Assembly (NCBI GenBank): GCA_038231275.1
Contig: JBBRLQ010000061.1
Coordinates: 1-17,970 of the forward strand
From: Polyangiales bacterium
Lineage (GTDB): Bacteria > Myxococcota_A > Polyangia > Polyangiales > Polyangiaceae
Direction: 5' to 3'
DNA length: 17,970 nt
The notes beneath the pieces were generated by a model that was not told the origin of the DNA, searched no databases, and saw only the letters and a program-made list of their open reading frames with translations. A program made the translations under genes and the position numbers. Numbering within the stretch: the first letter of the stretch is position 1; each line of letters opens with the position of its first letter. Of the stretch, positions 4,687-17,431 are shown in pieces.

Positions 4687-4908
4687 GTGGACAAGAAGAA
4701 GAAGCTCCTGCTCTCGAAGATCGCGACCTCCAAGAGTGAGGTCGCCGACGCCGAGAAGCAGCTCACCAAAGTGCTGAGCGAGACGCAGAACGGTCCACGC
4801 GCCGAGAAGACGCAGGTGACCGAGACCTTGAAGGACGCGCTCGCGAAGCTGCGCGCGGCCCGAATCGATCTCGAAGACCTCGATCGCTTGATCTCCGAGA
4901 AGGACTAG
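4687..4908 (+). CDS. Small coiled-coil / helical-hairpin protein (73 aa)
   Basis: Strong SD AGGAGG just upstream of GTG 4687; heptad-like Leu/Lys/Glu pattern. Confidence 0.8.
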   Translation: MDKKKKLLLSKIATSKSEVADAEKQLTKVLSETQNGPRAEKTQVTETLKDALAKLRAARIDLEDLDRLISEKD

Positions 4909-6518
4909 TCCAGCTTCTTGGCGGTGCTCGGCGACTCCGCTCTCGAGCCACCGGCGGCTTCCAGCGGCGTCCCCGCCTCGACCCCCGCTGCGCGCGCATC
5001 CACCGCACGGAGTAGGTGCTCGGCTGCGCTCGCGCCAACCAACCCGTGTCGGTGTTCTTCGAGGACCGTCGCCTTCTCGACCGCCAAGAGAGCCCGGCGC
5101 ATCGCCAGCATCTCCTCGCGGAGCAATTCTCCGGCTTCGATGTGTAGCTCGCGGATTGCGTCGTCGGCTGCGGTGACTGCCCCCTCGTACTCGACACGCA
5201 GCGCTGTCGCCACCTGGTCGTGCACGCGGCCCTGCCGCGTCATCTCGTTTAGAGCCTGGAGCGCCGCAGCCGCTGCGCGCCGGCTCCCGCGATGGCGCTC
5301 GTAGACTTCGCGGTCCGCACTCGACCCAACGACTCCGAGCCACCGGAGGAGCGGGCCCATCGTGAGCCCCTGTAAAACAAGCGAGAGGAGCACGACGCCG
5401 AACGTCAGCGTCACCAGCGTGCGTCGATGCGGAAAGTCCTCGGGCAACGCGAGAACGAGGACCATAGAAAGCACCCCGCGCAACCCTCCCCACGTCATGA
5501 CGATTCCCCATCGCCAGGGGATCCGCTCCGACGACCGCGACAAGGCGGCGGTGGTGAACGCGACGACGACTGCGCGCGCCGCCATCACGCATACGTACGC
5601 AACGAGCACCGCCTTCCAAGAAGCCACGAGCTCGTCGAGGTGGACCTGGAAGCCGATGAGCAGGAACACTACCGAGTTGAGGGCGAAGGCGACGTACTCC
5701 CAGAACGACTCCACCGCCACACGCGTCGTCGGGCTCATGCCCGTGTGCCGGCCGTAGTTGCCGACGATCATGCCCGCGACCACGGTCGCGATGACGCCGG
5801 AGAAGTGGAAGTGCTCGGCCGCCGCGAAGGAGCCGTAGGCCGCGATCGTCGTGAGGGTGATCTCGATCATCGCGTCGTCGACACGCTGGATCACCATCGA
5901 CACCGCGAGCGCGATGGCCACACCGATGAGCGCGCCCATTCCGACCACCTTCACGAAGTCGACGGTCGCGCCTGCGACGGAGACCGGACTGCCGTCCAGG
6001 TACGCGAGGACCATCGAGAAGAACACGACCGCGGTTCCGTCGTTGAGGAGGCTCTCGCCCTCCACGAGGACCCCGAGGCGCTTGGGCGCGCCGAGGCTTT
6101 TGAACATGGCGACCACCGCGATGGGATCCGTCGCGGCGATGAGCGCGGCGAACACCAGCGCGTGCACGAACCCAAAGCCGGGCGCGAGGCCGAGGGCACG
6201 GATCGCCGGAGCGAGCACGCCCGCCATCAAGGCCATCGCGGCGACAACCCCTGGCACGGCGAGGGAAACGATCGCGAGCTTGTTTCGCCGGAACCGCTCT
6301 ATCTCCAGGTGAAACGCGGCCTCGAAGAGGAGGCCGGGGAGGAAGATCGCGTAGAGGAGCTCCTTCGTCAAATGAGGCGGCTCGAACGCGCGCACCGATC
6401 CCAGGACCACGCCGGCGACGACGAGGGCGACCGTGTACGGGGCCTTGATGCGTCGCGCGACGAGCGCAACGGCAGCGGCGATCGCGAAAAGAACGACGAT
6501 GAGGTTCTCGAACGTCAT
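4905..6518 (-). CDS. Na+/H+ antiporter, CPA1 family (NhaP/NhaK/NhaG-like), 537 aa
   Basis: CPA1 motifs IFLPGLLFEAA, ATDPIAV, EGESLLNDG, SGVIATV and WGGLRG; about 12 hydrophobic helices and a helical cytoplasmic C-tail. Confidence 0.95.
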   Translation of the reverse strand: MTFENLIVVLFAIAAAVALVARRIKAPYTVALVVAGVVLGSVRAFEPPHLTKELLYAIFLPGLLFEAAFHLEIERFRRNKLAIVSLAVPGVVAAMALMAGVLAPAIRALGLAPGFGFVHALVFAALIAATDPIAVVAMFKSLGAPKRLGVLVEGESLLNDGTAVVFFSMVLAYLDGSPVSVAGATVDFVKVVGMGALIGVAIALAVSMVIQRVDDAMIEITLTTIAAYGSFAAAEHFHFSGVIATVVAGMIVGNYGRHTGMSPTTRVAVESFWEYVAFALNSVVFLLIGFQVHLDELVASWKAVLVAYVCVMAARAVVVAFTTAALSRSSERIPWRWGIVMTWGGLRGVLSMVLVLALPEDFPHRRTLVTLTFGVVLLSLVLQGLTMGPLLRWLGVVGSSADREVYERHRGSRRAAAAALQALNEMTRQGRVHDQVATALRVEYEGAVTAADDAIRELHIEAGELLREEMLAMRRALLAVEKATVLEEHRHGLVGASAAEHLLRAVDARAAGVEAGTPLEAAGGSRAESPSTAKKLD

Positions 6519-6626: not shown

Positions 6627-7775
6627 ATGATCTCGTCGAGCCCTCCCCTTACTTCGGTCGACGCGACGGCGGTGACCGTCGGCCCCGATCGCGTTCGGCT
6701 CCTTCGCGATGGCACCGAGGCGTTCCCGGCGATGCTCGCGGCGATCGCGGCCGCGAGGCACGAAATCCTGCTCGAGATGTACTGGTTCGGCGCGGACCGC
6801 ATCGGCGAGCAGTTTCGCGGAGCCCTCATCGAACGCGCCCGCGCGGGCGTTCGTACCCGCATCCTGTTCGACGGCTTCGGTAGCCTCGAGATGCCCAACA
6901 GCTGGTGGCGGCCGCTCCTCGACGCGGGCGCCGAGGTCCAAGAGTTCTCGCCGATCTCCCCGCTCAAGCGCCAGTTCCGCGCGGGGCGCGTCGCAAACCG
7001 AGACCATCGCAAGGTGCTCGTCGTAGACGGGGTTACCGGCTTCGCCGGGGGCATCAACATCGGCGAGCTTTGGGCGCCGCCCGACGCTCCGGAGTCCGCG
7101 TGGCGGGACGATGGCATCGAAATTTCGGGCCCCACCGCCCAAGTGCTCCGCGTCGCGTTCTACGACGTTTGGCGCCGATGCGGACGGGCTGTCGACGCCG
7201 ACATGAGCGAGCCTTTGCCCGGCAACCCGCTCCTTCGCATCCTCACCAATCGCATCGAGCGTCGTCCAACCCGCTCGATTCGTCGCGTGTACCTCGCAGG
7301 GCTCCGGCGCGCAACCAAGTCGGTCGACATCGCGAGCGCCTATTTTCTGCCGGGGCCGCGCTTTCTGCACGCGATGCGAGGCGCAGCGCGCCGAGGCGTG
7401 CGCGTTCGCCTCCTCGTGCCCGGGCGGTCCGACGTTCCAATCGTGTCTCTGGCGATGAGCTCTCTCTACGGCCGCCTCCTGTCGGACGGCGTCGAGGTGT
7501 ACGCGTACACGCCGCGCGTTCTGCACGCCAAGACGGGCGTGTTCGACGAGCGCTTCACGATGATCGGCAGCCACAACCTCGACGCCCGGTCGTGGCGATT
7601 CAACCTCGAGTGCAATGTCCTCGTCGACTCGCCCGAGTTCGCGCGCGTGGTCGGTCGGTCGTTCGAGCGGGACCTCACCGACGCGAGGCGCCTTGATCTT
7701 GGAGAGTGGCGCGGGCGCCCGGTCTCGTTGCGAATGCTCGCCTGGCTGGCGGCGCTCTTTCGCAAAGTGCTCTGA
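6627..7775 (+). CDS. clsB: Cardiolipin synthase B-like phospholipase D (382 aa)
   Basis: Two HKD motifs (RDHRKVLVVD..GGINI; LHAKTGVFD..GSHNLD), plus WRD and AYFLP. Lacks the N-terminal TM anchor of ClsA, as ClsB does. Confidence 0.9.
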   Translation: MISSSPPLTSVDATAVTVGPDRVRLLRDGTEAFPAMLAAIAAARHEILLEMYWFGADRIGEQFRGALIERARAGVRTRILFDGFGSLEMPNSWWRPLLDAGAEVQEFSPISPLKRQFRAGRVANRDHRKVLVVDGVTGFAGGINIGELWAPPDAPESAWRDDGIEISGPTAQVLRVAFYDVWRRCGRAVDADMSEPLPGNPLLRILTNRIERRPTRSIRRVYLAGLRRATKSVDIASAYFLPGPRFLHAMRGAARRGVRVRLLVPGRSDVPIVSLAMSSLYGRLLSDGVEVYAYTPRVLHAKTGVFDERFTMIGSHNLDARSWRFNLECNVLVDSPEFARVVGRSFERDLTDARRLDLGEWRGRPVSLRMLAWLAALFRKVL

Positions 7776-7909
7776 CTCTAGCTCGCGCGATCCCTGCGGG
7801 CTTGGCTCGGAAGCTGCACAGTGACCTATCCATGGCACGTGCACTCGACGACCCCTTCCCGTTACCCGGCGAACTCGTCAGGCGCATGCGAGGGCGTCGG
7901 AGACAGGGG

Positions 7910-8470
7910 ATGGCAGTCTCATTCTCGGTTTGCTCGATCGGAGCGCTGACGGCGGGAGCGCTGGTCATGTCCCTCGCCGGCGGTTGCGGCAGGAGCCTGG
8001 AGAAGGTGCCGAAGGCTCCGGAGGCGGACGACGAAAGGGACCTCGTCGCCATCGAGGAAGAAATGACGGTGGACGAAGCAGCGGAACCTGGCGCGCCCGA
8101 TCCTCCGGCCTACACGCCGCCTCGTCCGAAGGTTTATCCGGACTACTACGCGGCTGCGGTGAAGAACGCGGGCGATGTGTTTCGATCGATGCGGCCCGAC
8201 TTCCGCGAATGCTACAAAGAGAAGCTGGCCGCGAACCCCGAGGCGCACGCGTCGATCGTCTTCAACGTGCTCATTGGCCCGATGGGCGCGGTGCGGTCTG
8301 TGGAGATGACGGGCGGCGCGCTGCTCGGCGACGACGGCCGCGAGTGCCTTGCAGCGCGCGTCCGCAAGGCGACGTTCACCCCGGTGCACGGCGGCGGCAC
8401 GTTGCGCATCAAGTTGCCGATGGAGTTCAGGGCGGTGCTCGCCGCACGTGACGCGGGCGCGGACCGCTGA
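7910..8470 (+). CDS. AgmX/PglI C-terminal (TonB-C-like) domain lipoprotein (186 aa)
   Basis: ATG 7910 with GGAG SD; lipobox-like LAGGC; C-terminal 'FRECYKEKL..P...SIVFNVLIGPMGAV...CL...FTPVHGG..IKLPMEF' pattern typical of myxobacterial AgmX/PglI-C domains. Confidence 0.8.
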   Translation: MAVSFSVCSIGALTAGALVMSLAGGCGRSLEKVPKAPEADDERDLVAIEEEMTVDEAAEPGAPDPPAYTPPRPKVYPDYYAAAVKNAGDVFRSMRPDFRECYKEKLAANPEAHASIVFNVLIGPMGAVRSVEMTGGALLGDDGRECLAARVRKATFTPVHGGGTLRIKLPMEFRAVLAARDAGADR

Positions 8471-8550
8471 GCGGGTACGAGGGACACGGTGTGTCGAAAT
8501 GACCCTCGCCCACGGACAGGGAGACCGCGCACCGCGCCGGCTCCATCACC

Positions 8551-8961
8551 TCAACGCACGACCGCGGGCGTCGCCTCCGCGGGTCGCTCGTGCTCGCGCT
8601 GGCGGCGTCCCCGGGCGACCGGCTCACGGGAGCGCCTCTTCAGAGCGCGACGAACTGCACGCTCGGCGTGGTCGAGCGCTCCGTCTACGGCCGCGCGAGG
8701 ATCGAGGTCGCGATAGTCGAGGATCACGCTCGGCAGGCCGAGAAGCGCCACCTTCACGCGACACGCCTTCTCGACCGGGCCACGATGCGCGGCACTCTCT
8801 TCGAGTCGAACCGTGACGCGCTCGATACGAGAGACAAACTTCCCGAATTTCTGCTCCAGCCGTCGGGCGAGGTACAGACGTAACTCAGGGTGAAGGTCGA
8901 GACCGTGAAGATCGAAGCTCAGTGACGGGGGCGGCGCGTGAGGGTTCGAAGTGTCGTTCAT
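8551..8961 (-). CDS. HPF/RaiA-family ribosome-associated (subunit interface) protein (136 aa)
   Basis: ATG 8961 with GGAAGGAG upstream. Pattern 'HGLDLHPELRLYLARRL...IERVTVRL...C.VKV.L.G...V......D..AAVDGALD..ERAVRR' matches the S30AE/HPF fold. Confidence 0.85.
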   Translation of the reverse strand: MNDTSNPHAPPPSLSFDLHGLDLHPELRLYLARRLEQKFGKFVSRIERVTVRLEESAAHRGPVEKACRVKVALLGLPSVILDYRDLDPRAAVDGALDHAERAVRRALKRRSREPVARGRRQREHERPAEATPAVVR

Positions 8962-9009
8962 GGCCAGGTGGGCTCCTTCCGAATGCAGTTGGTCGACAGG
9001 AGACCAAGG

Positions 9010-9025
9010 TGCAAATCGCGCGCCC
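9010..9025 (-). promoter_or_regulatory. Putative sigma54 (-24/-12) promoter of the HPF-family gene
   Basis: Minus strand GGGCGCG-CGAT-TTGCA gives exact GG-N10-GC spacing with TTGCA, about 50 nt upstream of the ATG. Confidence 0.6.
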
Positions 9026-9156
9026 CGCATCGAAACCGCCCAATGCAGCTCAGGCGGTTCGACGAACGCAAGGCGAGGGAAAGGTTTGGCTCATCGATAC
9101 CAGCGTCGGGGCCGGGAGCCGGTAGGGGGACCGCGCCTGCAGCGTGCGCGCGACCG

Positions 9157-10068
9157 TCATGAGGCGGCCGGTGGCGCTTCCATGCGCACGTTGAACACGG
9201 GCGCCTCGACCAGTTGGAACGTCGCCGAGGCGAAGCCCACGAGGCCCTTCGTCTCGTCGAAGGCCGGTAAGATCCGCGTGAAGAGCTGATCCTTCGTCAT
9301 GCGGCGCTCGCGGAAATGCGTGACATAACGAACGGTGAACTCGACCCAGTTGTCGTTCGCCACGACGGTCACCACCGGCTCGAGCCGCGCGTCCTCCACG
9401 CGGTACTTGCGCACGGTGGTCAGCCAAGGCTCCTTGGCCCCGGCGACCCTCTCGGCGGTGACCTCGTCGGCGATGCCCTGGAGGATCTTCCGCGCCAACG
9501 CGTAGTCGGAGCCGTACTTCACCGGCACGGTGAACTCGTCCCAGACGTACGGAAAGTCCGCGGAGTAGTTGTAGACCGGCTCTTTGAAGACGGAGCTGTT
9601 GGCGACGCGCACGATGCGGCCGTTGTAGAGGTCGGCCTTCACCCACCCGCCGCACTCCATCATCGTCGTCCGCAGCATGCCGATGTCGATGACGTCGCCC
9701 ACGATGCCCCCGAGCTGGATGCGGTCGCCCACCCGAAAAAAGCTGCCGAAAGAAAGGGCGACCCAACCGGCGATGCTCGCGATCAGCTCCTTGAGCGAGA
9801 ACGCGATGCCCGCGCTGGCGGCGCCCAGCGCGACGGTCAGGCCGCTCATTTTTCCGCTGAGCGAGCCGACGACCACGAGGACGGCGACGACATACCCCGC
9901 CGAAGCGATCGCCTTGCGCACGCGGTAGCGAACGTCCTTGTCGTCGATGTACCGGGAAGACACACGGCGGAGCACCCGCGCGAGGACGAGCACGACGACC
10001 ACGGCCGCGATCGTCCACGCGATCTCACGCACCGACGGGCTCTCCCAGAGCGCGATCAGCCGTTCCAT
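9157..10068 (-). CDS. MscS-family mechanosensitive channel (303 aa), second in operon
   Basis: ATG 10068 (MERLIALWES) in a TGATG overlap with the upstream stop. Three TM helices, pore segment GAASAGIAFSLKELIASIAG, and FRVGDRIQ..GDVIDIG beta-domain signature. Confidence 0.93.
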   Translation of the reverse strand: MERLIALWESPSVREIAWTIAAVVVVLVLARVLRRVSSRYIDDKDVRYRVRKAIASAGYVVAVLVVVGSLSGKMSGLTVALGAASAGIAFSLKELIASIAGWVALSFGSFFRVGDRIQLGGIVGDVIDIGMLRTTMMECGGWVKADLYNGRIVRVANSSVFKEPVYNYSADFPYVWDEFTVPVKYGSDYALARKILQGIADEVTAERVAGAKEPWLTTVRKYRVEDARLEPVVTVVANDNWVEFTVRYVTHFRERRMTKDQLFTRILPAFDETKGLVGFASATFQLVEAPVFNVRMEAPPAAS

Positions 10069-11012
10069 CAGCTCACCTCCCTGCCTTCGCGCCCGGCGAG
10101 CGGCGGTCCGTACTCGTGCCCCTCGACGACGGCGCGCCGCAACAGAACCGCCGGAGGCCGGATCCCGTGCGTGCGGAACGCCTTGGCCACGCGGAAGTGC
10201 ACGTCGGTCTCGAAGGGCTTCTCGTACTTGCAGTCGAAGACGTACGGCCGCACCTTGAGGTGCATCGCGACGTAATCGCCGAGGATGACCTGCTTGGCGA
10301 GCACGGGGACCGGGCGCTCCAAGAAGACATACGGGCTCGTGAGGCACGCCTCGCGAATGAGCTCGGCGGCGAGCTCGGCGTCCTGATCGATGCCGATGTA
10401 GAAGTCGAACGGCGTCTGCATCTCGAGCGCGCCCCAGTTGCCGCTCGAGGTGACGTCGGTGAGCACCTTGTTGTTGGGGATCGTGATGATGTTGTGATCG
10501 AGTGTGTTCATGCGCACGCTGCGGAGGCCGATCTTGATGATGTCGCCGTACTCCCCGGCGAAGGCGACGCGGTCGCCCACCTGGAAGGGCCGGTCGAACA
10601 TGATCGTGATCCCGGCGATGAACGCGGCGACGAGATCGCGCATCGCGAAGCCCACCGCGAACGCGAGCGTGCCGCCGATGACGGTGAGCGTGGTCGAGTC
10701 GAGCTTCACGCTGAGCGTGAGCGAGAGCGTGAGCGCAACGATGTAGACCGTGAAGCGCGCGACCGACTCGTACTTCTGGATCGTGGGCCTGCGGTTGGCG
10801 AACCGACGCCCCAGCCGATCCGCGACGTCGCTGATGATCCGAAGGGTGATGGCCGCCCCGACGATGACGATGAGCGAGAAGAAGAGCCCGCTCCACCGAA
10901 TGAAGCCGGCGAGCTTGGTCACGTCGGGCGTGTCCTGCGCGTGGGCAGCGCCGGTGAGGAGGGCCGTGGTCGTCAGTGCCGAGAGGAACGCGAGCTTGGG
11001 CATGCGCTTCAT
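10068..11012 (-). CDS. MscS-family mechanosensitive channel with N-terminal signal peptide (314 aa)
   Basis: ATG 11012 (ATGA overlap with the upstream stop); signal peptide ending AHA|QD; motifs AVGFAMRDLVAAFIAG, RPFQVGDRV, GDIIKIGLRS and IPNNK. Confidence 0.93.
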   Translation of the reverse strand: MKRMPKLAFLSALTTTALLTGAAHAQDTPDVTKLAGFIRWSGLFFSLIVIVGAAITLRIISDVADRLGRRFANRRPTIQKYESVARFTVYIVALTLSLTLSVKLDSTTLTVIGGTLAFAVGFAMRDLVAAFIAGITIMFDRPFQVGDRVAFAGEYGDIIKIGLRSVRMNTLDHNIITIPNNKVLTDVTSSGNWGALEMQTPFDFYIGIDQDAELAAELIREACLTSPYVFLERPVPVLAKQVILGDYVAMHLKVRPYVFDCKYEKPFETDVHFRVAKAFRTHGIRPPAVLLRRAVVEGHEYGPPLAGREGREVS

Positions 11013-14000
11013 GGGGTCACCAAGAGGTGTCGTCGTTGCAAAAAGAGGGTCATCGCGCGGAACCATGTCCAGGTGACCCGGTAGTGCCCTTGCTCTTCCT
11101 TGAGGTAGCCGCGCGCCACCGCATATCTGAGCGCGTCCGCCACGTCTGCTGCGTTCAGCATCGTCGCGCGACCAACCTCCTCCGCGCGGACCGGTGCGAG
11201 CTGTAGGACCGCGCGAAGCACGAACACGGCGGGATCGGGCAGGCGCTCGAAGTCGGTCGAGTCCATCGCCTGGAAGAAGCGAACGTGGGTAGCGCCGTCT
11301 TCGCCGGTGCCGAGCGAGCGCCTCCACATGTGAAGCGCCACGCCGGGGTTGCCGCTCGCGTGGTCCCACAAGAGGCCGTAGTAGCTGGCGGCGCGGCGTG
11401 CGAGCGCCTCCTGTTTATCGATCTCGTCGGCGTTTGCCGGCAACTTCTCGAGCAGGCGCTCGAACGTGGGCTTGAGGCCGACCGCCTCCGTTCGCGCCTC
11501 GAGGAGGGCGACGATCTGCTCCGGTCTCCATGCGTTCAAGCGGATCACGTCGTCGAACAGCGGGCGGGCGCCGCGCGCGCGCTGAAGGAAGAGCCAGATG
11601 ACCTCGTCGACGGCGAACACCCACGTCGTGCGGGCCGAGTGCTGACTCGCGGTCGCGAGCAGCGCGTCGAACGCGGCAAGCCCCCCCATCACCGGCCGAA
11701 TGAACCGATGGGCTTCGTCGAGCAGGACACCTCGTGCGCCCGCGGCGATCGCGGCGCCGACCTGGTCCAGGGACGCCTCCGGGGCGAGTTGCAGCCCCTT
11801 CGCGAGCGCGCCACGCAGAGCCTCCACATCTCCATCCGCCGGCGCGTCCGTCAGCAACGTGTCCGCGAACATGTCGTGCAAGCGCCCAATCATCAGGCTC
11901 TTGCCCATCCCGCGGGCGCCGACGACGGCGATTACGCCGCCTCTCCGCTCGCGCAGGCGCTTCGTGAGCGCGTCGAGCTGGAGGTCAACGTCGGTCGCGA
12001 TCCATTCGGCGGACGGCGTCTCCGGCCCCAGCGCATCGAAGGCCGCGTCGGGGATCGGCTGCGTCTCGAGCTGCGCGCGCTCGGCGCCGAGCTTGTCGAG
12101 CTCGCGTCGAAACAGGTACGCGAGCACCCGGCGCGTGACGTCGAAGCGGCCGACCCAGCTGCGCGTCGCGCGCGCCGCCCCTCGCCCGAACAGGTAGGCA
12201 CCTCCCGCGGTCGCGGCGAAGAAGCTCTTCCACCCTTTGCGGTTGGCGAGCAGCCACGCCTCGAACGGCGATTTTTTGCGCGCGTGCTCGACGCGCCTGA
12301 AGACGGTGTCGCGCCACCAGCGAACCAGGACCAGAAGGACCGGGATCGACGCGAACCAGCACGTGGAGAGGACCCACTGGTAGATCGTTCCGCGACCCAC
12401 GAGCCTCGCGCTCAAGACGAGGATGAGGCCGAACGTCACGACGACGCGACCGACGAGGCGGAGCGAGCGAAGACGAAGCGCGGCCGTGTCGATCTCGGCG
12501 CGATCCCGCGCATCGTGCCCGCTTCCTGCAAGCGCGTTCACGACATCGACGACGAGCGCCCCGCCGATGATCCAATGCACGATCACGGTCACGAGCTGGA
12601 CCTCGAGCACGCTCTCGGCGGCCGCGGGGAGCAGCCATGCGATCGCGAACGCCAGCGCGAGCCACTCGAGGGGCGAGTGGACTTGCAACGCGAACGCGAG
12701 CATCCGCGTCGCCGGCCCGGGTGACGCGCGGCGGTCGCGACGGTCGGTGTCCATCGAGCGCTTGTGAAGGTCCCTCAACATCGGCGGAATGCGCTTGCGC
12801 GCCAGAAGGAACGCGGCGACCGCGAACGCCCACTCCACGAGGAGCACGATGTTTCGCCACGCCTCCTGCCGCAGACCCTGACCTGGATCGCGCAGGCTCG
12901 CCTGCCAGCGAGCGGTCGCGTGGCGGTGGTAGCGCGCGATGAGCGTGAGCTGACGGAGCTCCGATGCCGCCTGATCGACGCCGGCGCCGCCGAAGCTCGT
13001 GACGGCGGCGCGCTTGGCCGACGACAGGAACGGCAAGAGCGCGAGGCGCTCGCCGTTGAGGCTGTCGATCTCGTCGAGCAGCTGGGAGGCGTCCTCTTCT
13101 CGGCCGATCCGCTCCGACTCGCGAAGGCGGCCGGCCGTCGCCTCGACGCGCGCGCGCGTCTCCTTCGCGGCCCGCATGTCCACGCCCGTGGCGAGATCCG
13201 CGAGCGCGTTGGGGCCCGGCTCCGGCACGCCGCTCACGCCGTCCGCCAGGCCGTCGAGCGCCTTGTCCAGCTCGTCGCGGGCGGACCGCAGCGCTTGCCG
13301 AAGCTCGTCGTACGTCGGATCGACGGCGTCCGCGGCCTTGGCTCGGGCCTCGCGGGCTCGCCGTTGCCAGCCGAGTGTGACCTCGCGCCGGTCGGTGATC
13401 TCCGCGTTCCGTTTGGTGAGCTCCTTCTCGAACGCCGCCTGGGTGCGCTCGACGCCGAGAAGGCGCGCGTACTCCTCCGACACGACGCGCTCCGCTTCGG
13501 AGCGTGCGTCCCTCGCCGCGGCGAGGGCCTTTTGCCGCAGCGCCTCCGCGTCACGCGCGCGAAGCTCGTCGTCCGTTGGCGGGGGCGTCGCCGCCGCCTG
13601 GCGCTTCGCGTGCGCGGCGAGCAGCTCGTGCCGGCGCGCCGACGGCAGCGAATAGAACGCGTAGCGCGCGCGGTCGAGGTCGACGCGCGCGTTCCACGAC
13701 GCGGGATCGATCTCACGTTCACCGCCGTCCATGCCCGCGTCGCGCGCCCGAGGCTTCTTGTTCGGCGCGCCGGCCGTCGCGGCTTTTGCCTCGCGGTCGA
13801 CCTCGCGAAGCAGCGCGGCGAGCCGGCCGGCCTCGAGCTCGACCGCCGTGTCCTCGGCGACGGGAACGTCGAAGAGCGTCTCGGGCCGGACTTCGACGGC
13901 GAGCTTCTCCTCCAGCAGAGCGCGAACCGCGGAGGCGGTCCGGCGCATCTCGGCGAGCGAAGCGTCCTCCGCGGCCGCGTCCTCGGCGCGGGCGTCCACG

Positions 14001-14107
14001 ACGGCGGCGTCTGCGCCCGCATCGCGAGCGGCCTGAGCGCGACCGTGGGGCGCGAGCGCGACGACCGCGGCGGCGATGGCGAAGAGGGCGGCGGGCACGC
14101 GTCTCAT
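11009..14107 (-). CDS. Large membrane-anchored P-loop (AAA+/STAND-like) ATPase with periplasmic coiled coil and C-terminal winged-helix-like domain (1032 aa)
   Basis: ATG 14107 (MRRVPAALFAIAAAVVALAPHGRAQA signal peptide); long Ala/Arg/Glu helical region; 5-6 hydrophobic helices (~12190-12855). Walker A GARGMGKS at 11920-11897, Walker B VLLDE at 11728-11714, then ASGNPGVA and a wHTH-like tail. Confidence 0.85.
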   Translation of the reverse strand: MRRVPAALFAIAAAVVALAPHGRAQAARDAGADAAVVDARAEDAAAEDASLAEMRRTASAVRALLEEKLAVEVRPETLFDVPVAEDTAVELEAGRLAALLREVDREAKAATAGAPNKKPRARDAGMDGGEREIDPASWNARVDLDRARYAFYSLPSARRHELLAAHAKRQAAATPPPTDDELRARDAEALRQKALAAARDARSEAERVVSEEYARLLGVERTQAAFEKELTKRNAEITDRREVTLGWQRRAREARAKAADAVDPTYDELRQALRSARDELDKALDGLADGVSGVPEPGPNALADLATGVDMRAAKETRARVEATAGRLRESERIGREEDASQLLDEIDSLNGERLALLPFLSSAKRAAVTSFGGAGVDQAASELRQLTLIARYHRHATARWQASLRDPGQGLRQEAWRNIVLLVEWAFAVAAFLLARKRIPPMLRDLHKRSMDTDRRDRRASPGPATRMLAFALQVHSPLEWLALAFAIAWLLPAAAESVLEVQLVTVIVHWIIGGALVVDVVNALAGSGHDARDRAEIDTAALRLRSLRLVGRVVVTFGLILVLSARLVGRGTIYQWVLSTCWFASIPVLLVLVRWWRDTVFRRVEHARKKSPFEAWLLANRKGWKSFFAATAGGAYLFGRGAARATRSWVGRFDVTRRVLAYLFRRELDKLGAERAQLETQPIPDAAFDALGPETPSAEWIATDVDLQLDALTKRLRERRGGVIAVVGARGMGKSLMIGRLHDMFADTLLTDAPADGDVEALRGALAKGLQLAPEASLDQVGAAIAAGARGVLLDEAHRFIRPVMGGLAAFDALLATASQHSARTTWVFAVDEVIWLFLQRARGARPLFDDVIRLNAWRPEQIVALLEARTEAVGLKPTFERLLEKLPANADEIDKQEALARRAASYYGLLWDHASGNPGVALHMWRRSLGTGEDGATHVRFFQAMDSTDFERLPDPAVFVLRAVLQLAPVRAEEVGRATMLNAADVADALRYAVARGYLKEEQGHYRVTWTWFRAMTLFLQRRHLLVTP

Positions 14108-14210
14108 GGGAGGACCTTCAGGCAGATTGGAGACTACTACACGCGCCTTCGATCCGTCGCTCCGCCCCCATGCCGGAGATCTACACCGAGATCGGTTTCG
14201 TGACGCCCGC

Positions 14211-15152
14211 TCAAAATGCCGCGCGCACGCCGGCGTAGTAGGTCTGCGTCGCCGGCGGATCGTAGCCGAACAACTTCTGGACGTACCCGAGCTCCACCGC
14301 AAAGTGGTCGGTCACCCGGGCGTACGCGAGAAACGCGACGGCGAACTTGAGCGCGCGGATCCTATCGTGCCGGTCAGGAAAGCCCGCGGTGTACGCCGCG
14401 TCGTAGCGTTCGTCGAATCGTTCGGTGAGGTCTCCCTCGAAGTACGGCCCCACCTTCACCCCCGCGGGCCAGCGGAGGAGCCAGCGCTTGGCTTCGACCC
14501 CGAAGAGGACCGTCTGCGCGACGGCGCCGTTCTGCTTTCCAGGCACGCCCGCCCCCACGTACGTGTTCGTCTCGAGCGACGCCCAGTCCGTGAGGTGCGC
14601 GCCGAACGTGAGACCTCCAGCCACGACGTCGATGCGCGGGACGACGAAGCCGCGCAAGTTCACGTCGAAGGGAGCCGTGCCCTGAAGATACGCGCCGAAC
14701 GACAGACGCGCGTCGTGGAGGAAGTTCGCCGACAGGCGCGGGGTGAGCAGGAAGCCGTTGTTCGCGATGTGGAACTGGCAAAGCCCCTCGCCCACCACCG
14801 TTCCCGCGCACTTGGAAGCCGGGACTGGCGGCCCGAGCGTGAGGTCGTTCACCTCCGCTGGCGAGGAGAAGTACGCCGCGTCGAGTCCGAAGCGAACGTC
14901 CTCGAGCGGCCCGACCTTGCCCAGCGTGTAGCCGGCGCCGACCTGGAGCACGGTCCACCGCGCGCTCTGCTTGGAGTCGGGGTTCTCGTTGGGCTCGACT
15001 TTGCCGCGTTCGAGCGTTACCCGTGCGCTGGCGTCGACCTCGCCGGGGTGACCTCCGACGGGGCTCGGAACGAAGGCCCGCGCGTCGCGTGCGCTGCCTA
15101 GACGGGCGAGCACCAAACACGCGAGGCATAGGCGCTGGTACGCGTCGCTCAT
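14211..15152 (-). CDS. Putative outer-membrane beta-barrel protein, hypothetical (313 aa)
   Basis: ATG 15152 (MSDAYQRLCL...ARA|F) signal-peptide-like N-terminus; alternating aromatic/hydrophobic strands; C-terminal YYAGVRAAF with terminal Phe (BAM-type beta-signal). Confidence 0.7.
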   Translation of the reverse strand: MSDAYQRLCLACLVLARLGSARDARAFVPSPVGGHPGEVDASARVTLERGKVEPNENPDSKQSARWTVLQVGAGYTLGKVGPLEDVRFGLDAAYFSSPAEVNDLTLGPPVPASKCAGTVVGEGLCQFHIANNGFLLTPRLSANFLHDARLSFGAYLQGTAPFDVNLRGFVVPRIDVVAGGLTFGAHLTDWASLETNTYVGAGVPGKQNGAVAQTVLFGVEAKRWLLRWPAGVKVGPYFEGDLTERFDERYDAAYTAGFPDRHDRIRALKFAVAFLAYARVTDHFAVELGYVQKLFGYDPPATQTYYAGVRAAF

Positions 15153-15245
15153 TCGTGGACGGTACGCGCCCACACGCCGGAAGTTTCGCGAGTCAGTCGA
15201 AAGTCCCGCCCTGGAGCGACCCATCAGAAGCACGGAGCAACCCTT

Positions 15246-15848
15246 CTAGGCCGAGAGGCGCGCGACCTCCGCCTCGAGGTCCGCGATGCGGCGGTCTCGT
15301 GCAGCGAGCGCGGCCTCGACGTCCGCCGCCTCGAAGCGCCGGGGGATGTGCTGGGGGCAGTTCACGTCCCACGCGGTGACGTCGATCACGAACGCTCGCT
15401 CCGCGCGCCCCTTCTGCCCGGGCGCGAGCAGCTTTTTGACGAGCTCCGGATCGTCCTCGACGACGCGCGCCACGCCCCAGATTTTTACGCGGCGCTGGTG
15501 CTCGTAGTCGATCAAGAAGAGCTGCACCCTCGGGTTCTCCGCGAGGTTTCCGATCGAGACATATTGCCGGTTCCCGCGCAGGTCGGCGAACGCCAACGTC
15601 CGATCGCCGAGGACGCGCAAGAATCCCTTGGGGCCGCCGCGGTGCTGGATGTACGGCTGCCCTTCGGCGCTCGCGGTGGCGAGGAAGATGCTCGTCTGCT
15701 CGCCGATGAACGCCGCGAGATCCGGCGTGAGGTCCGTCTCCCATCCGCCGCCTTGCTCCATCTTCGCGTAGGCGTCTCGCGAGCCGAGCCGCCGCTGCGC
15801 CGCCTTCACGGACGGCGTGAAGGCGACATCGCTCGCGGGCGCGCTCAT
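15246..15848 (-). CDS. Pyridoxamine 5'-phosphate oxidase-related FMN-binding protein (200 aa)
   Basis: Motifs FTPSVKAAQ, GQPYIQHRGGPKGFL, ADLRGNRQYVSIGNL, RRVKIWG and WDVNCPQHI; ATGA overlap with the upstream gene. Confidence 0.92.
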   Translation of the reverse strand: MSAPASDVAFTPSVKAAQRRLGSRDAYAKMEQGGGWETDLTPDLAAFIGEQTSIFLATASAEGQPYIQHRGGPKGFLRVLGDRTLAFADLRGNRQYVSIGNLAENPRVQLFLIDYEHQRRVKIWGVARVVEDDPELVKKLLAPGQKGRAERAFVIDVTAWDVNCPQHIPRRFEAADVEAALAARDRRIADLEAEVARLSA

Positions 15849-16387
15849 CGGCGTGCGACCTGCGGGAAGTCGATCTCGGTCGCGAGCGCCGAGTTGACGT
15901 AGTTGGTGAGCGTGTTCAGCGCGACGTGGGCGACGATCTCGACGATCTGCGCGTCGTCATGGCCCGCGTCCTTCACCGCGCGGACGTCCTCGGCCGTCAC
16001 GTGGCCGCGCTCGCGGACGAGCTTCGTCGCGAAGCGGAGCGCCGCGTTGGCCTTGGGATCGCTGGACGCGCCGTCACGGTTCGCCGCGATCTCTGCGTCG
16101 TCGAGCTTGGCGACGTTCTTCCCGAGGTACGCGTGCGCGGAGAGGCAGTAGTCGCAGCCGTTGCTCTCGGCGACCGCGAGGGCGATGCGCTCGCGGGTCC
16201 GCGCGTCGATGCGTCCCTTGGCGAGCGCGCCGTTCAGGCTCAGGTACCCCTCGAGCGCCGCCGGACTATTGCCGACGATGCGGAACAGGTTGGGGACGCT
16301 GCCGAGCTGCTTCTTCACGGCCTCGAGGAGGGGCTGCGCGGCGGCGGGGGAGGCTTCGATCGAGGCGGGGGTCGGGATGCGGGACAT
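15845..16387 (-). CDS. AhpD-like alkylhydroperoxidase / carboxymuconolactone decarboxylase family protein (180 aa)
   Basis: ATG 16387 (MSRIPTPASIE) with SD AAGGAAGAG; motifs LGSVPNLF, RERIALAVAESNGCDYCLSAH (CxxC..H) and NTLTNY...IDFP. Confidence 0.92.
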   Translation of the reverse strand: MSRIPTPASIEASPAAAQPLLEAVKKQLGSVPNLFRIVGNSPAALEGYLSLNGALAKGRIDARTRERIALAVAESNGCDYCLSAHAYLGKNVAKLDDAEIAANRDGASSDPKANAALRFATKLVRERGHVTAEDVRAVKDAGHDDAQIVEIVAHVALNTLTNYVNSALATEIDFPQVARR

Positions 16388-16486
16388 GGTCTCTTCCTTT
16401 TCGAGCGACGCGGTCCATTCCGCCGTCGCCCCACGAAGATGCGACCTCCCGATGGAATCAACAATAGAGCCAATTGACAGGAGACC

Positions 16487-16503
16487 ATTGCGTGTAGTGC
16501 AAT
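16487..16503. promoter_or_regulatory. LysR-type regulator binding site
   Basis: Dyad ATTGC-N7-GCAAT containing T-N11-A, in the AT-rich divergent gap just upstream of the LysR start. Confidence 0.7.
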
Positions 16504-16510
16504 AATCAAG

Positions 16511-17431
16511 ATGGACCGCTTCGAGGCAATGGGTGTCTTCGTGGCCGTGGCGGAGCTCCGCGGGTTCGCGCCGGCTGCGCGGCGGCTGGGCGTTTCCCCA
16601 TCGGCGGCGACCCGCCAGGTCGCGGGGCTGGAGGAGCACCTCGGCACGCGCCTCCTCCAGCGCACGACGCGGTCGGTGACGTTGACCGACGCGGGCGCGC
16701 GCTTCCTCGAGCGCGCGCGGCGGATCCTCGCCGACGTCGCCGAGGCGGAGGAGGCGGCGCAGGCCGAGCGCACCACGCCGACGGGGCGCTTCGTCGTGGC
16801 GGCGCCGAACGTCTTCGGACGGCTCCACGCCGCGCCGGCGATGGGAACGTACCTCGCGAAATACCCCGCGGTCCGCGGTGAGCTGATCCTCGGCGATCGG
16901 ATGGTGAACCTCGTCGACGAGGGCATCGACGCGGCGGTTCGGATCGGCGTGCTCGAGGACTCGAGCCTCGTCGCGCGGCACGTCGGCGCGACGCGGCGCG
17001 TGATCGTCGCCTCGCCGAAGTACCTGGCGCGCAAAAAGGCGCCGCGCACTTCGGCAGACCTCGCCGGTCACGACGTCATCCAGTGCACGGCGATCTCCGC
17101 GGCGCCCGAGTGGCGCCTCGGACCCAAGGAGCACGCACGCGTCGTGATCTCTCCGCGCTACGTAACCAACAGCGTCGACGCCGCCGTCGGCCAGGCAGAG
17201 CTCGGCGGGGGTCTCACGATGGTGCTCGGGTACCAGGTCACCGACGCCGTACGCGACGGTCGTCTCGCGATCGTCCTCGCGGAGCTGGAGCCGCCGCCGC
17301 TCCCGATCCACGTCGTGTACCCGACCTCACGCCTCCTCTCCGCGAAGGTGCGTGCGTTCGTGGACCTCATCGTGCGCACGTGCGATTGGGAGTTCGTCGA
17401 GATGGGCCGGGTCAAGGCGCGTCGGAGATGA
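16511..17431 (+). CDS. LysR-family transcriptional regulator (CrgA/DmlR-like), 306 aa
   Basis: N-terminal HTH MDRFEAMGVFVAVAELRGFAPAARRLG...LEEHLGTRLLQRTTR; substrate-binding domain with DRMVNLVDEGIDAAVRIG and SAKVRAFVD. Confidence 0.96.
   Translation: MDRFEAMGVFVAVAELRGFAPAARRLGVSPSAATRQVAGLEEHLGTRLLQRTTRSVTLTDAGARFLERARRILADVAEAEEAAQAERTTPTGRFVVAAPNVFGRLHAAPAMGTYLAKYPAVRGELILGDRMVNLVDEGIDAAVRIGVLEDSSLVARHVGATRRVIVASPKYLARKKAPRTSADLAGHDVIQCTAISAAPEWRLGPKEHARVVISPRYVTNSVDAAVGQAELGGGLTMVLGYQVTDAVRDGRLAIVLAELEPPPLPIHVVYPTSRLLSAKVRAFVDLIVRTCDWEFVEMGRVKARRR

Follow-up and report, generated by a model that had tools for sequence, protein, structure and literature searches.

Does a large membrane-anchored ATPase that is encoded immediately ahead of mechanosensitive channel genes work together with the channel beside it, or do the two merely lie next to each other? 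We asked this of a contig from a Polyangiales bacterium (GenBank assembly GCA_038231275.1, contig JBBRLQ010000061.1), whose whole analyzed stretch of 17,970 nucleotides is referred to here as the window. Three consecutive, co-directional open reading frames (ORFs), all open, lie on its minus strand: gene A (11009..14107), which encodes a 1032-aa membrane ATPase with a Pfam AAA_22 domain; gene B (10068..11012), which encodes a 314-aa MscS-family channel and is the conserved partner of A; and gene C (9157..10068), which encodes a second, accessory MscS-family protein of 303 aa. The G+C content at third codon positions (GC3) is 0.88, 0.94, and 0.91 for A, B, and C, respectively, the level expected of real genes in this genome; because GC3 is just 0.57 in the open frame 5′ of the A start codon (beyond 14107), the ATG at 14107 is the likely start of A. 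The genes are translationally coupled by overlapping stop and start codons on the minus strand, ATGA between A and B (11009..11012) and TGATG between B and C (10066..10070), the latter with GGGAGG 7 nt upstream. A scan of positions 8400 to 15400 for promoters and terminators found none above shuffled expectation. Genes, overlaps, and motifs, all read directly from the DNA, are as an earlier note on this stretch had described them. The reading we favor, at a probability of roughly one half, is that A and B are two subunits of one dedicated membrane channel system.

The earlier note had proposed an ATPase coupled to two MscS channels and had called for a survey of gene neighborhoods among its homologs. 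A one-genome-per-species scan gave 198 tblastn-confirmed stretches with a relative of A, of which 80 were kept and 79 loci analyzed, and the proteins of the window were searched against these 79 loci with tblastn. In 78 of the 79 loci, A is followed directly, and on its own strand, by a B ortholog (46 to 85% identity), and in the sole exception (L002) the contig, 2769 bases long, breaks off 80 bases past A; homologs of the ATPase thus keep an MscS neighbor rather than usually occurring without one. The distance between the two genes is available for 77 loci (B is missing from L002, and no start codon was found in L050): the stop and start codons overlap in 35, mostly by 4 bases, and the gap is ≤30 nt in 72, with a median of 4 nt. 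Outlying gaps are 153, 185, and 857 nt, and one value of -64 probably reflects a wrong choice of start. The 857-nt gap belongs to L018 (4777-7725, 8586-9554), in which the A frame is interrupted, matches query residues 82-704 only, and ends 857 nt before B, possibly through a frameshift, pseudogene formation, or an assembly error.

All-against-all clustering of ORFs of at least 90 aa from the 79 loci and the window (80 neighborhoods) returned A in 80/80, MscS genes in 78 loci, and the antisense shadows of these genes, and the next family occurs in 12 loci. Because nothing but A and MscS recurs in the 80 neighborhoods, the conserved unit is a two-gene module, and the A-B adjacency in 78 of 79 loci confirms that the arrangement is not due to chance. 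This unit is A with one specific MscS, B, rather than with two MscS channels; C is present in 16 of 78 loci only, where it always flanks the pair, and is accessory and outside the core. These C-type proteins (48 to 65% identity to C, 22 to 35% to B-type proteins) are encoded downstream on the same strand in 11 loci, as in the window, upstream on the same strand in 2, and on the opposite strand in 3, and lie within 137 nt of A-B in 14 of the 16; a further 55 loci have at least 1.2 kb of downstream sequence without C, and 7 are not judgeable.

By taxon label, the 79 loci comprise 68 from Myxococcota/Deltaproteobacteria, 9 from Pseudomonadota, 1 from Actinomycetota (a 2.8-kb contig), and 1 unlabeled. 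Two separate clades of the A tree carry the labels Gammaproteobacteria, Steroidobacteraceae, or Chromatiaceae (L044/L057/L078 and L062/L064/L067/L074); the A-B pair may extend beyond Myxococcota, or those bins may be mislabeled. Homologs of A number 245 full-length matches and, among the 120 listed, are named only "AAA family ATPase," "ATP-binding protein," or "hypothetical." A profile search with the N-terminal module of A against 1.84 billion cluster representatives recovered 734, 599, and 431 proteins at E ≤ 1e-3, 1e-10, and 1e-30; all 150 listed rows belong to the same family, and all 40 of the distant long members found in this way carry AAA_22. The corresponding search with B returned 2219 proteins (E ≤ 1e-50) against the 245 for A (E ≤ 1e-3), numbers that cannot be set side by side given the limits on word-index candidates and the length windows.

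Trees of the A cytoplasmic domain and of B were built with FastTree for 62 rows: the window and the 61 loci in which the N-terminal region of A is complete and B is usable, leaving 18 loci out. Of 59 splits, 26 are common to both trees; when the labels were shuffled 200 times, the average was 0.17 and no shuffle exceeded 3. Of the 41 well-supported splits of the A tree, 23 are found again in the B tree. More telling than the shared splits are metagenome-assembled genomes (MAGs) with two pairs, in which each A stays with its B: the A tree and the B tree alike join L020 to L023 and L025 to L021. Three MAGs each carry two diverged A-B pairs (L020/L025, L023/L046, and L061/L075), with 48% identity in A and 62% in B between L020 and L025; two diverged pairs per MAG point to an old duplication of the whole pair.

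Both MscS genes are recognizable at the level of Pfam MS_channel_2nd (PF00924; cut-off, 20.2 bits), B with E 1.3e-17 (64.1 bits) and C with E 3e-11 (43.7 bits), and hydropathy together with alignment to solved MscS gives each three transmembrane (TM) helices, the third leading into the beta-domain. A profile of B matches solved MscS from TM1 to the C-terminal domain (E 1.8e-17), aligning with residues 30-227 of Escherichia coli MscS and residues 55-268 of 282 in T. tengcongensis MscS, and it also matches the pore cores of MscM (E 1e-13) and MscK (E 1.6e-12). B aligns through the C-terminal alpha-beta domain in 3t9n but has no match to Pfam MS_channel_3rd; C reaches that model at E 0.0097 (16.8 bits, under the cut-off of 21) and aligns to residues 31-210 of solved E. 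coli MscS at E 8e-11. B starts with a signal peptide, and the segments conserved specifically in its subfamily, the mature N terminus after the signal peptide and the TM1-TM2 loop, are candidate contact sites. Mean column identity is 67% for B, 53% for the cytoplasmic part of A, and 40% for the N-terminal part of A.

The A protein itself divides into an envelope half and a cytoplasmic half. Residues 1-26 (14030..14107, minus strand), ending in ...AQA, form the signal-like hydropathy segment that the earlier note had read as a signal peptide, with cleavage presumed to follow it, and homologs likewise have hydrophobic N termini in the alignment. Residues 27-411 (12875..14029) form a helical domain that the signal peptide and TM topology would place in the periplasm, and residues 412-607 (12287..12874) form a TM module in which hydropathy and the predicted helices agree on five segments (about 416-438, 474-498, 499-528, 546-575, and 575-597), the lower of the five to six that had been counted before. 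The positive charge of the loops puts the N-terminal 390 residues outside and the ATPase inside in the predicted topology. An AlphaFold2 (AF2) model of residues 27-650, built from a 64-sequence alignment, is all-helical, with helices of up to ~53 residues and a predicted local distance difference test score (pLDDT) of 92.5.

The cytoplasmic part, residues 600-1032 (11012..12310, minus strand), consists of juxtamembrane helices, a P-loop NTPase, a helical lid, a winged helix, and a C-terminal helix. As the earlier note had it, the Walker A motif GARGMGKS (residues 730-737; 11897..11920) and the Walker B motif VLLDE (residues 794-798; 11714..11728) are intact in the translation. AAA_22 covers residues 722-816 (E 2.3e-8; 34.9 bits against a cut-off of 27) and is matched by 23 of 24 family members at E ≤ 1 and at ≥27 bits by 38 of 40 distant members. 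The AF2 model (78-sequence alignment; pLDDT 93.6) has the fold of P-loop base, helical lid, and winged helix, the last built as helix-helix-helix-strand-strand, and a Foldseek search with it places ORC2/Cdc6 at the top (E 8e-10 to 4e-9), with ORC1 at up to 6e-8 and further matches to RuvB, clamp-loader subunits, Avs4, and NRC resistosomes. The model and the full-length matches to ORC/Cdc6 bear out the winged helix-turn-helix (wHTH)-like tail noticed earlier. A. pernix ORC2 (1w5t) and P. aerophilum Cdc6 (1fnn) share with A the three-part fold over ~400 aligned columns, both Walker motifs, and an invariant Arg between strands 4 and 5, at 13 to 16% identity and template modeling scores (TM-scores) of 0.36 to 0.42; unlike them, A is membrane-anchored, has a Walker B motif with mostly DD and an invariant STAND-type GNP, and lacks an origin or DNA context. 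A profile of A gave only P-loop-level matches among Protein Data Bank (PDB) sequences (best E 0.0026), and no NCBIfam model matched A at E ≤ 0.01, the presence of a GspA/ExeA model in that library being unchecked.

Purifying selection acts on the NTPase site. G733, G735, D797, R845, G919, and N920 are found in 78/78 sequences, P921 in 77/78, and K736 in 75/78, and the residue after D797 is D in 65/78, E in 5/78, and N in 6/78. Because the second Walker B residue is mostly Asp, which fits a slow switch better than a motor, it is unlikely that A energizes the channel, one of the roles the earlier note had offered; the sequence suggests a slow nucleotide switch of the ORC/Cdc6-STAND type. R845 stands at the end of the helix between strands 828-834 and 853-856, a position that suggests an arginine finger acting in an oligomer.

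These features bear on a reading in which A is an assembly or quality-control factor that helps to insert, oligomerize, or localize B and then leaves, as ExeA/GspA would for its secretin. ExeA/GspA is also a member of AAA_22 and a membrane-anchored ATPase linked to a multimeric envelope channel, and differs from A in its reversed topology, with an N-terminal cytoplasmic ATPase, one TM helix, a periplasmic peptidoglycan-binding domain, and a secretin rather than MscS as its partner. The AAA_22 domain of A fits such a role, the tight translational coupling suits co-translational assembly, and the invariant Arg at the arginine-finger position suggests oligomer-dependent hydrolysis. We nevertheless consider a transient assembly factor distinctly unlikely: the large conserved periplasmic and TM module of A exceeds what a chaperone would appear to need, the NCBIfam search gave A no match (with the proviso above), and MscS channels of other bacteria assemble unaided according to the retrieved text of a 2026 review (PMC13591265).

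The far C terminus of A speaks to a second alternative, that A and B have separate functions, A being a membrane-tethered sensor of envelope or osmotic stress that contacts DNA or another partner through its winged helix, and MscS simply sharing its regulon. ORC/Cdc6 proteins use their winged helix on DNA, and the Foldseek matches show that A shares this domain with them; weak winged-helix Pfam matches are to MarR_2 in 5/24 members and TrmB in 3/24, and contact between A and B is demonstrated by neither sequence nor structure. On the other hand, A ends in a conserved helix with invariant W1013, W1015, and R1025, and such a hydrophobic C-terminal helix is not typical of DNA-binding wHTH proteins; co-regulation, moreover, rarely keeps a gene order with overlapping codons in 78/79 loci labeled as both Myxococcota and Pseudomonadota. 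We judge separate functions unlikely.

The STAND-like traits of A raise a third possibility, defense, which the earlier note had offered as an alternative. Here A would be a membrane-bound STAND-like sensor that oligomerizes upon phage or envelope attack and opens B, collapsing ion gradients in an abortive infection. STAND NTPases are defined by a Walker B motif with DD, GxP in the helical domain, and a C-terminal sensor or repeat region after the winged helix. A resembles them (Avs4, NRC, AAA_16, nSTAND) in its order of nucleotide-binding domain, helical domain, and winged helix, in its Walker B hhhhDD (65/78), and in the invariant GxP-like GNP of its helical domain, and Foldseek matches include Avs4 and NRC resistosomes (8dgf, 9h2l, and 9cc8, at E about 1e-7). 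Pfam matches to AAA_16 occur in 22/24 members, with weak ones to nSTAND5 (14/24), NACHT (7/24), and NB-ARC (6/24), and in the window the STAND models stay under their cut-offs (AAA_16, 21.8 bits against 32.6; best nSTAND5, E 6e-4). Some MAGs carry two A-B pairs, which also suits defense. Unlike STAND proteins, A ends 20 residues after the winged helix with no C-terminal repeat or sensor domain, and it is paired with a conserved MscS, not with a variable effector. Neither A, B, C, nor two overlapping upstream ORFs match any model of PADLOC-DB 2.0 at E ≤ 0.01. High conservation and tree congruence are not typical of fast-turnover defense genes, and B is unusually conserved (67% mean column identity) and the pair trees are largely congruent. 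The trio also stands among housekeeping neighbors in the window (by Pfam, a DEAD helicase, Na+/H+ exchanger, PLD, HPF-like protein, and PNPOx) in a region of uniform composition, ~69% G+C throughout. A known transmembrane P-loop NTPase defense protein, Tmn, is likewise a membrane P-loop NTPase and controls ion export (10.64898/2026.03.01.708804); it differs from A in being a single protein with no MscS partner. Together, the missing PADLOC match, the conserved and co-inherited pair, and the housekeeping surroundings disfavor defense despite the STAND-like traits, and we place it last among the alternatives, as improbable.

In the two-subunit channel system that we favor, B would be the MscS-type pore, by analogy a heptamer with a cytoplasmic vestibule, and A its non-pore partner, contributing a periplasmic helical domain, five extra TM helices, and an ORC/Cdc6-STAND-like switch that ends in a winged helix. 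The periplasmic and TM parts of A would correspond to the module that MscK and MscM carry in cis, and A would pack around or beside the B pore. Its NTPase domains may bind ATP and oligomerize through the conserved arginine, and nucleotide state, transmitted through the juxtamembrane helices, could decide whether the B channel can assemble or open, so that solute release would depend on nucleotide or energy state, or on a signal from the periplasm, in addition to membrane tension. C might be an optional second pore subunit or a second client of A. The binding of A to B, their stoichiometry, the direction of control, and the physiological signal are the parts of this scheme that we infer.

How far A can be called the split-off module of an MscK-type channel, as the earlier note suggested, depends on its N-terminal half. 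Searched with Foldseek against 350,542 PDB chains, the model of residues 27-650 finds E. coli MscK in its open and closed states (7ux1_A and 7uw5_A) at ranks 1 and 2, marginally (E 0.076 to 0.082, probability 0.77 to 0.80, TM-score 0.15 to 0.18) and with unrelated helical proteins close behind. A protein language-model search with residues 27-650 and 340-660 gave MscS_TM, MscS_porin, DUF3772, and MscM as the nearest named clusters, with scores of 0.82 to 0.84 (0.82 for residues 340-660), under the tool's 0.9 reliability mark. Because two independent weak signals pick the family of the neighboring gene, we regard this as a real lead, with a split MscK not established. A simple split of MscK is impossible, since eight additional TM helices precede the pore core in MscK and MscM (retrieved text of PMC13591265), against five in A, and B has its own signal peptide. 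Module and pore lie on separate genes in 78/79 loci, and 0/40 scanned members of the A family have an MS_channel domain.

Several observations weigh against the two-subunit reading. The MscK-like reading of the N-terminal module fails every sequence test, and the structural and language-model signals for MscK are below the tools' own reliability marks. Relatives of E. coli MscK carry both MscS_porin and MscS_TM in Pfam; these two families are outside the 25 most-matched families of 24 A members (E ≤ 1), are missing from the full Pfam listing of A in the window, and match 0/40 distant members at E ≤ 1e-3 (MscS_TM, PF12794; MscS_porin, PF12795). Alignment of the N-terminal profile of A to MscK residues 1-820 with hhalign gave a probability of 1.1% with a single MscK sequence and 0.4% with 15, the latter a shallow set of enterobacterial sequences at 82 to 89% identity. 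Fusions of A to MscS are absent from the 120 and 150 listed matches, as judged by length and matched region, and from the 40 members scanned with Pfam. Neighboring genes that are simply inherited together would also lie adjacent and give congruent trees, and shared genome ancestry alone would yield the congruence of the A and B trees. A complex prediction with A residues 27-650 and mature B from separate alignments scored 0.00 against a mark of 0.32, a result that says nothing about binding either way. Known channels of the MscS family need neither accessory proteins nor ATP in order to gate (PMC13591265), and the retrieved text of that review has 0 occurrences of ATP or ATPase. The split-MscK idea is accordingly weakly supported: MscK as the top structural match (E 0.08) and the MscS_TM look-alikes (0.82 to 0.84) favor it, and Pfam and hhalign do not. 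A stronger form of the channel system, which we would offer only tentatively and hold to be doubtful, has the B heptamer obligatorily partnered, perhaps 7:7, with A, as an MscK-like sensor in trans plus an ATP switch around the vestibule, so that opening or assembly is licensed by nucleotide.

Set against known channels, what is new about the pair is that a conserved nucleotide-switch partner accompanies a channel of the MscS family; the ATPase family is itself uncharacterized. MscK (KefA) and MscM (YjeP) of E. coli resemble it in combining an MscS pore core with a signal peptide, an extended helical domain in the periplasm, and additional TM helices; they differ in being single chains with 11 TM helices and no NTPase (retrieved text of PMC13591265), whereas in A-B the extra module is on a separate gene, has 5 TM helices, and is fused to an ATPase. 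Known MscS-family channels, MscK and MscM included, are single-gene homo-oligomers. A full-text literature search, with subscription-only papers not covered, found no description of an ATPase-MscS pair and, in keeping with the earlier note, no functional characterization. Bacterial MscS-type channels are the textbook case of gating by membrane tension alone. If A and B work together, the pair would provide energy- or signal-dependent control of solute release in large-genome soil bacteria, and a natural in-trans version of the MscK/MscM sensor module would be useful for dissecting how extra domains tune gating. A nucleotide-licensed A-B system would not be purely "force-from-lipid"; among bacterial mechanosensitive channels, none before it would have been nucleotide-gated or have had a dedicated auxiliary subunit. 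The pairing also puts a sizeable family, which has 431 representative clusters at E ≤ 1e-30 and is annotated only as "AAA family ATPase" or "hypothetical protein," into a context that can be tested.

Other genes of the window add side observations. Upstream of A, a 340-aa ORF (14211-15233, minus strand; GC3 0.85) ends 103 nt before it; this ORF has no match in Pfam, NCBIfam, or PADLOC and is not kept beside A in other loci, and its last residues (...AAF) resemble the C terminus of an outer-membrane beta-barrel. Downstream, an HPF/YfiA-like gene (8551-9030, minus strand; Ribosomal_S30AE, E 7e-8; GC3 0.70) lies 126 nt from C, and 2.6 kb from C is a Na+/H+ exchanger gene (4905-6518, minus strand; Pfam E 3.5e-71). 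Relatives of this exchanger (33 to 66% identity) occur within 6 kb of A-B in 9 of the 79 other loci (L005, L006, L008, L011, L012, L014, L033, L055, and L059) at varying positions and on varying strands, which could be synteny or a loose ion-homeostasis neighborhood. A PLD-family gene with two domains, cardiolipin-synthase-like (6627-7775, plus strand), has relatives near A-B in L014 and L022, and an ORF at 7706-8470 (plus strand) has the myxobacterial AgmX/PglI C-terminal "myxo_SS_tail" domain (NCBIfam, E 6e-11), in line with the window coming from Myxococcota. Farther upstream, a 488-aa ORF (15845-17311, minus strand) has a CMD domain only at residues 350-429, in its 3′ part near 16.0 to 16.3 kb, and its 5′ part overlaps a clear LysR regulator gene (16511-17431, plus strand); the actual CMD gene probably covers much less than this ORF. 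This CMD ORF and a PNPOx-like gene overlap by 4 bases (15845-15848).

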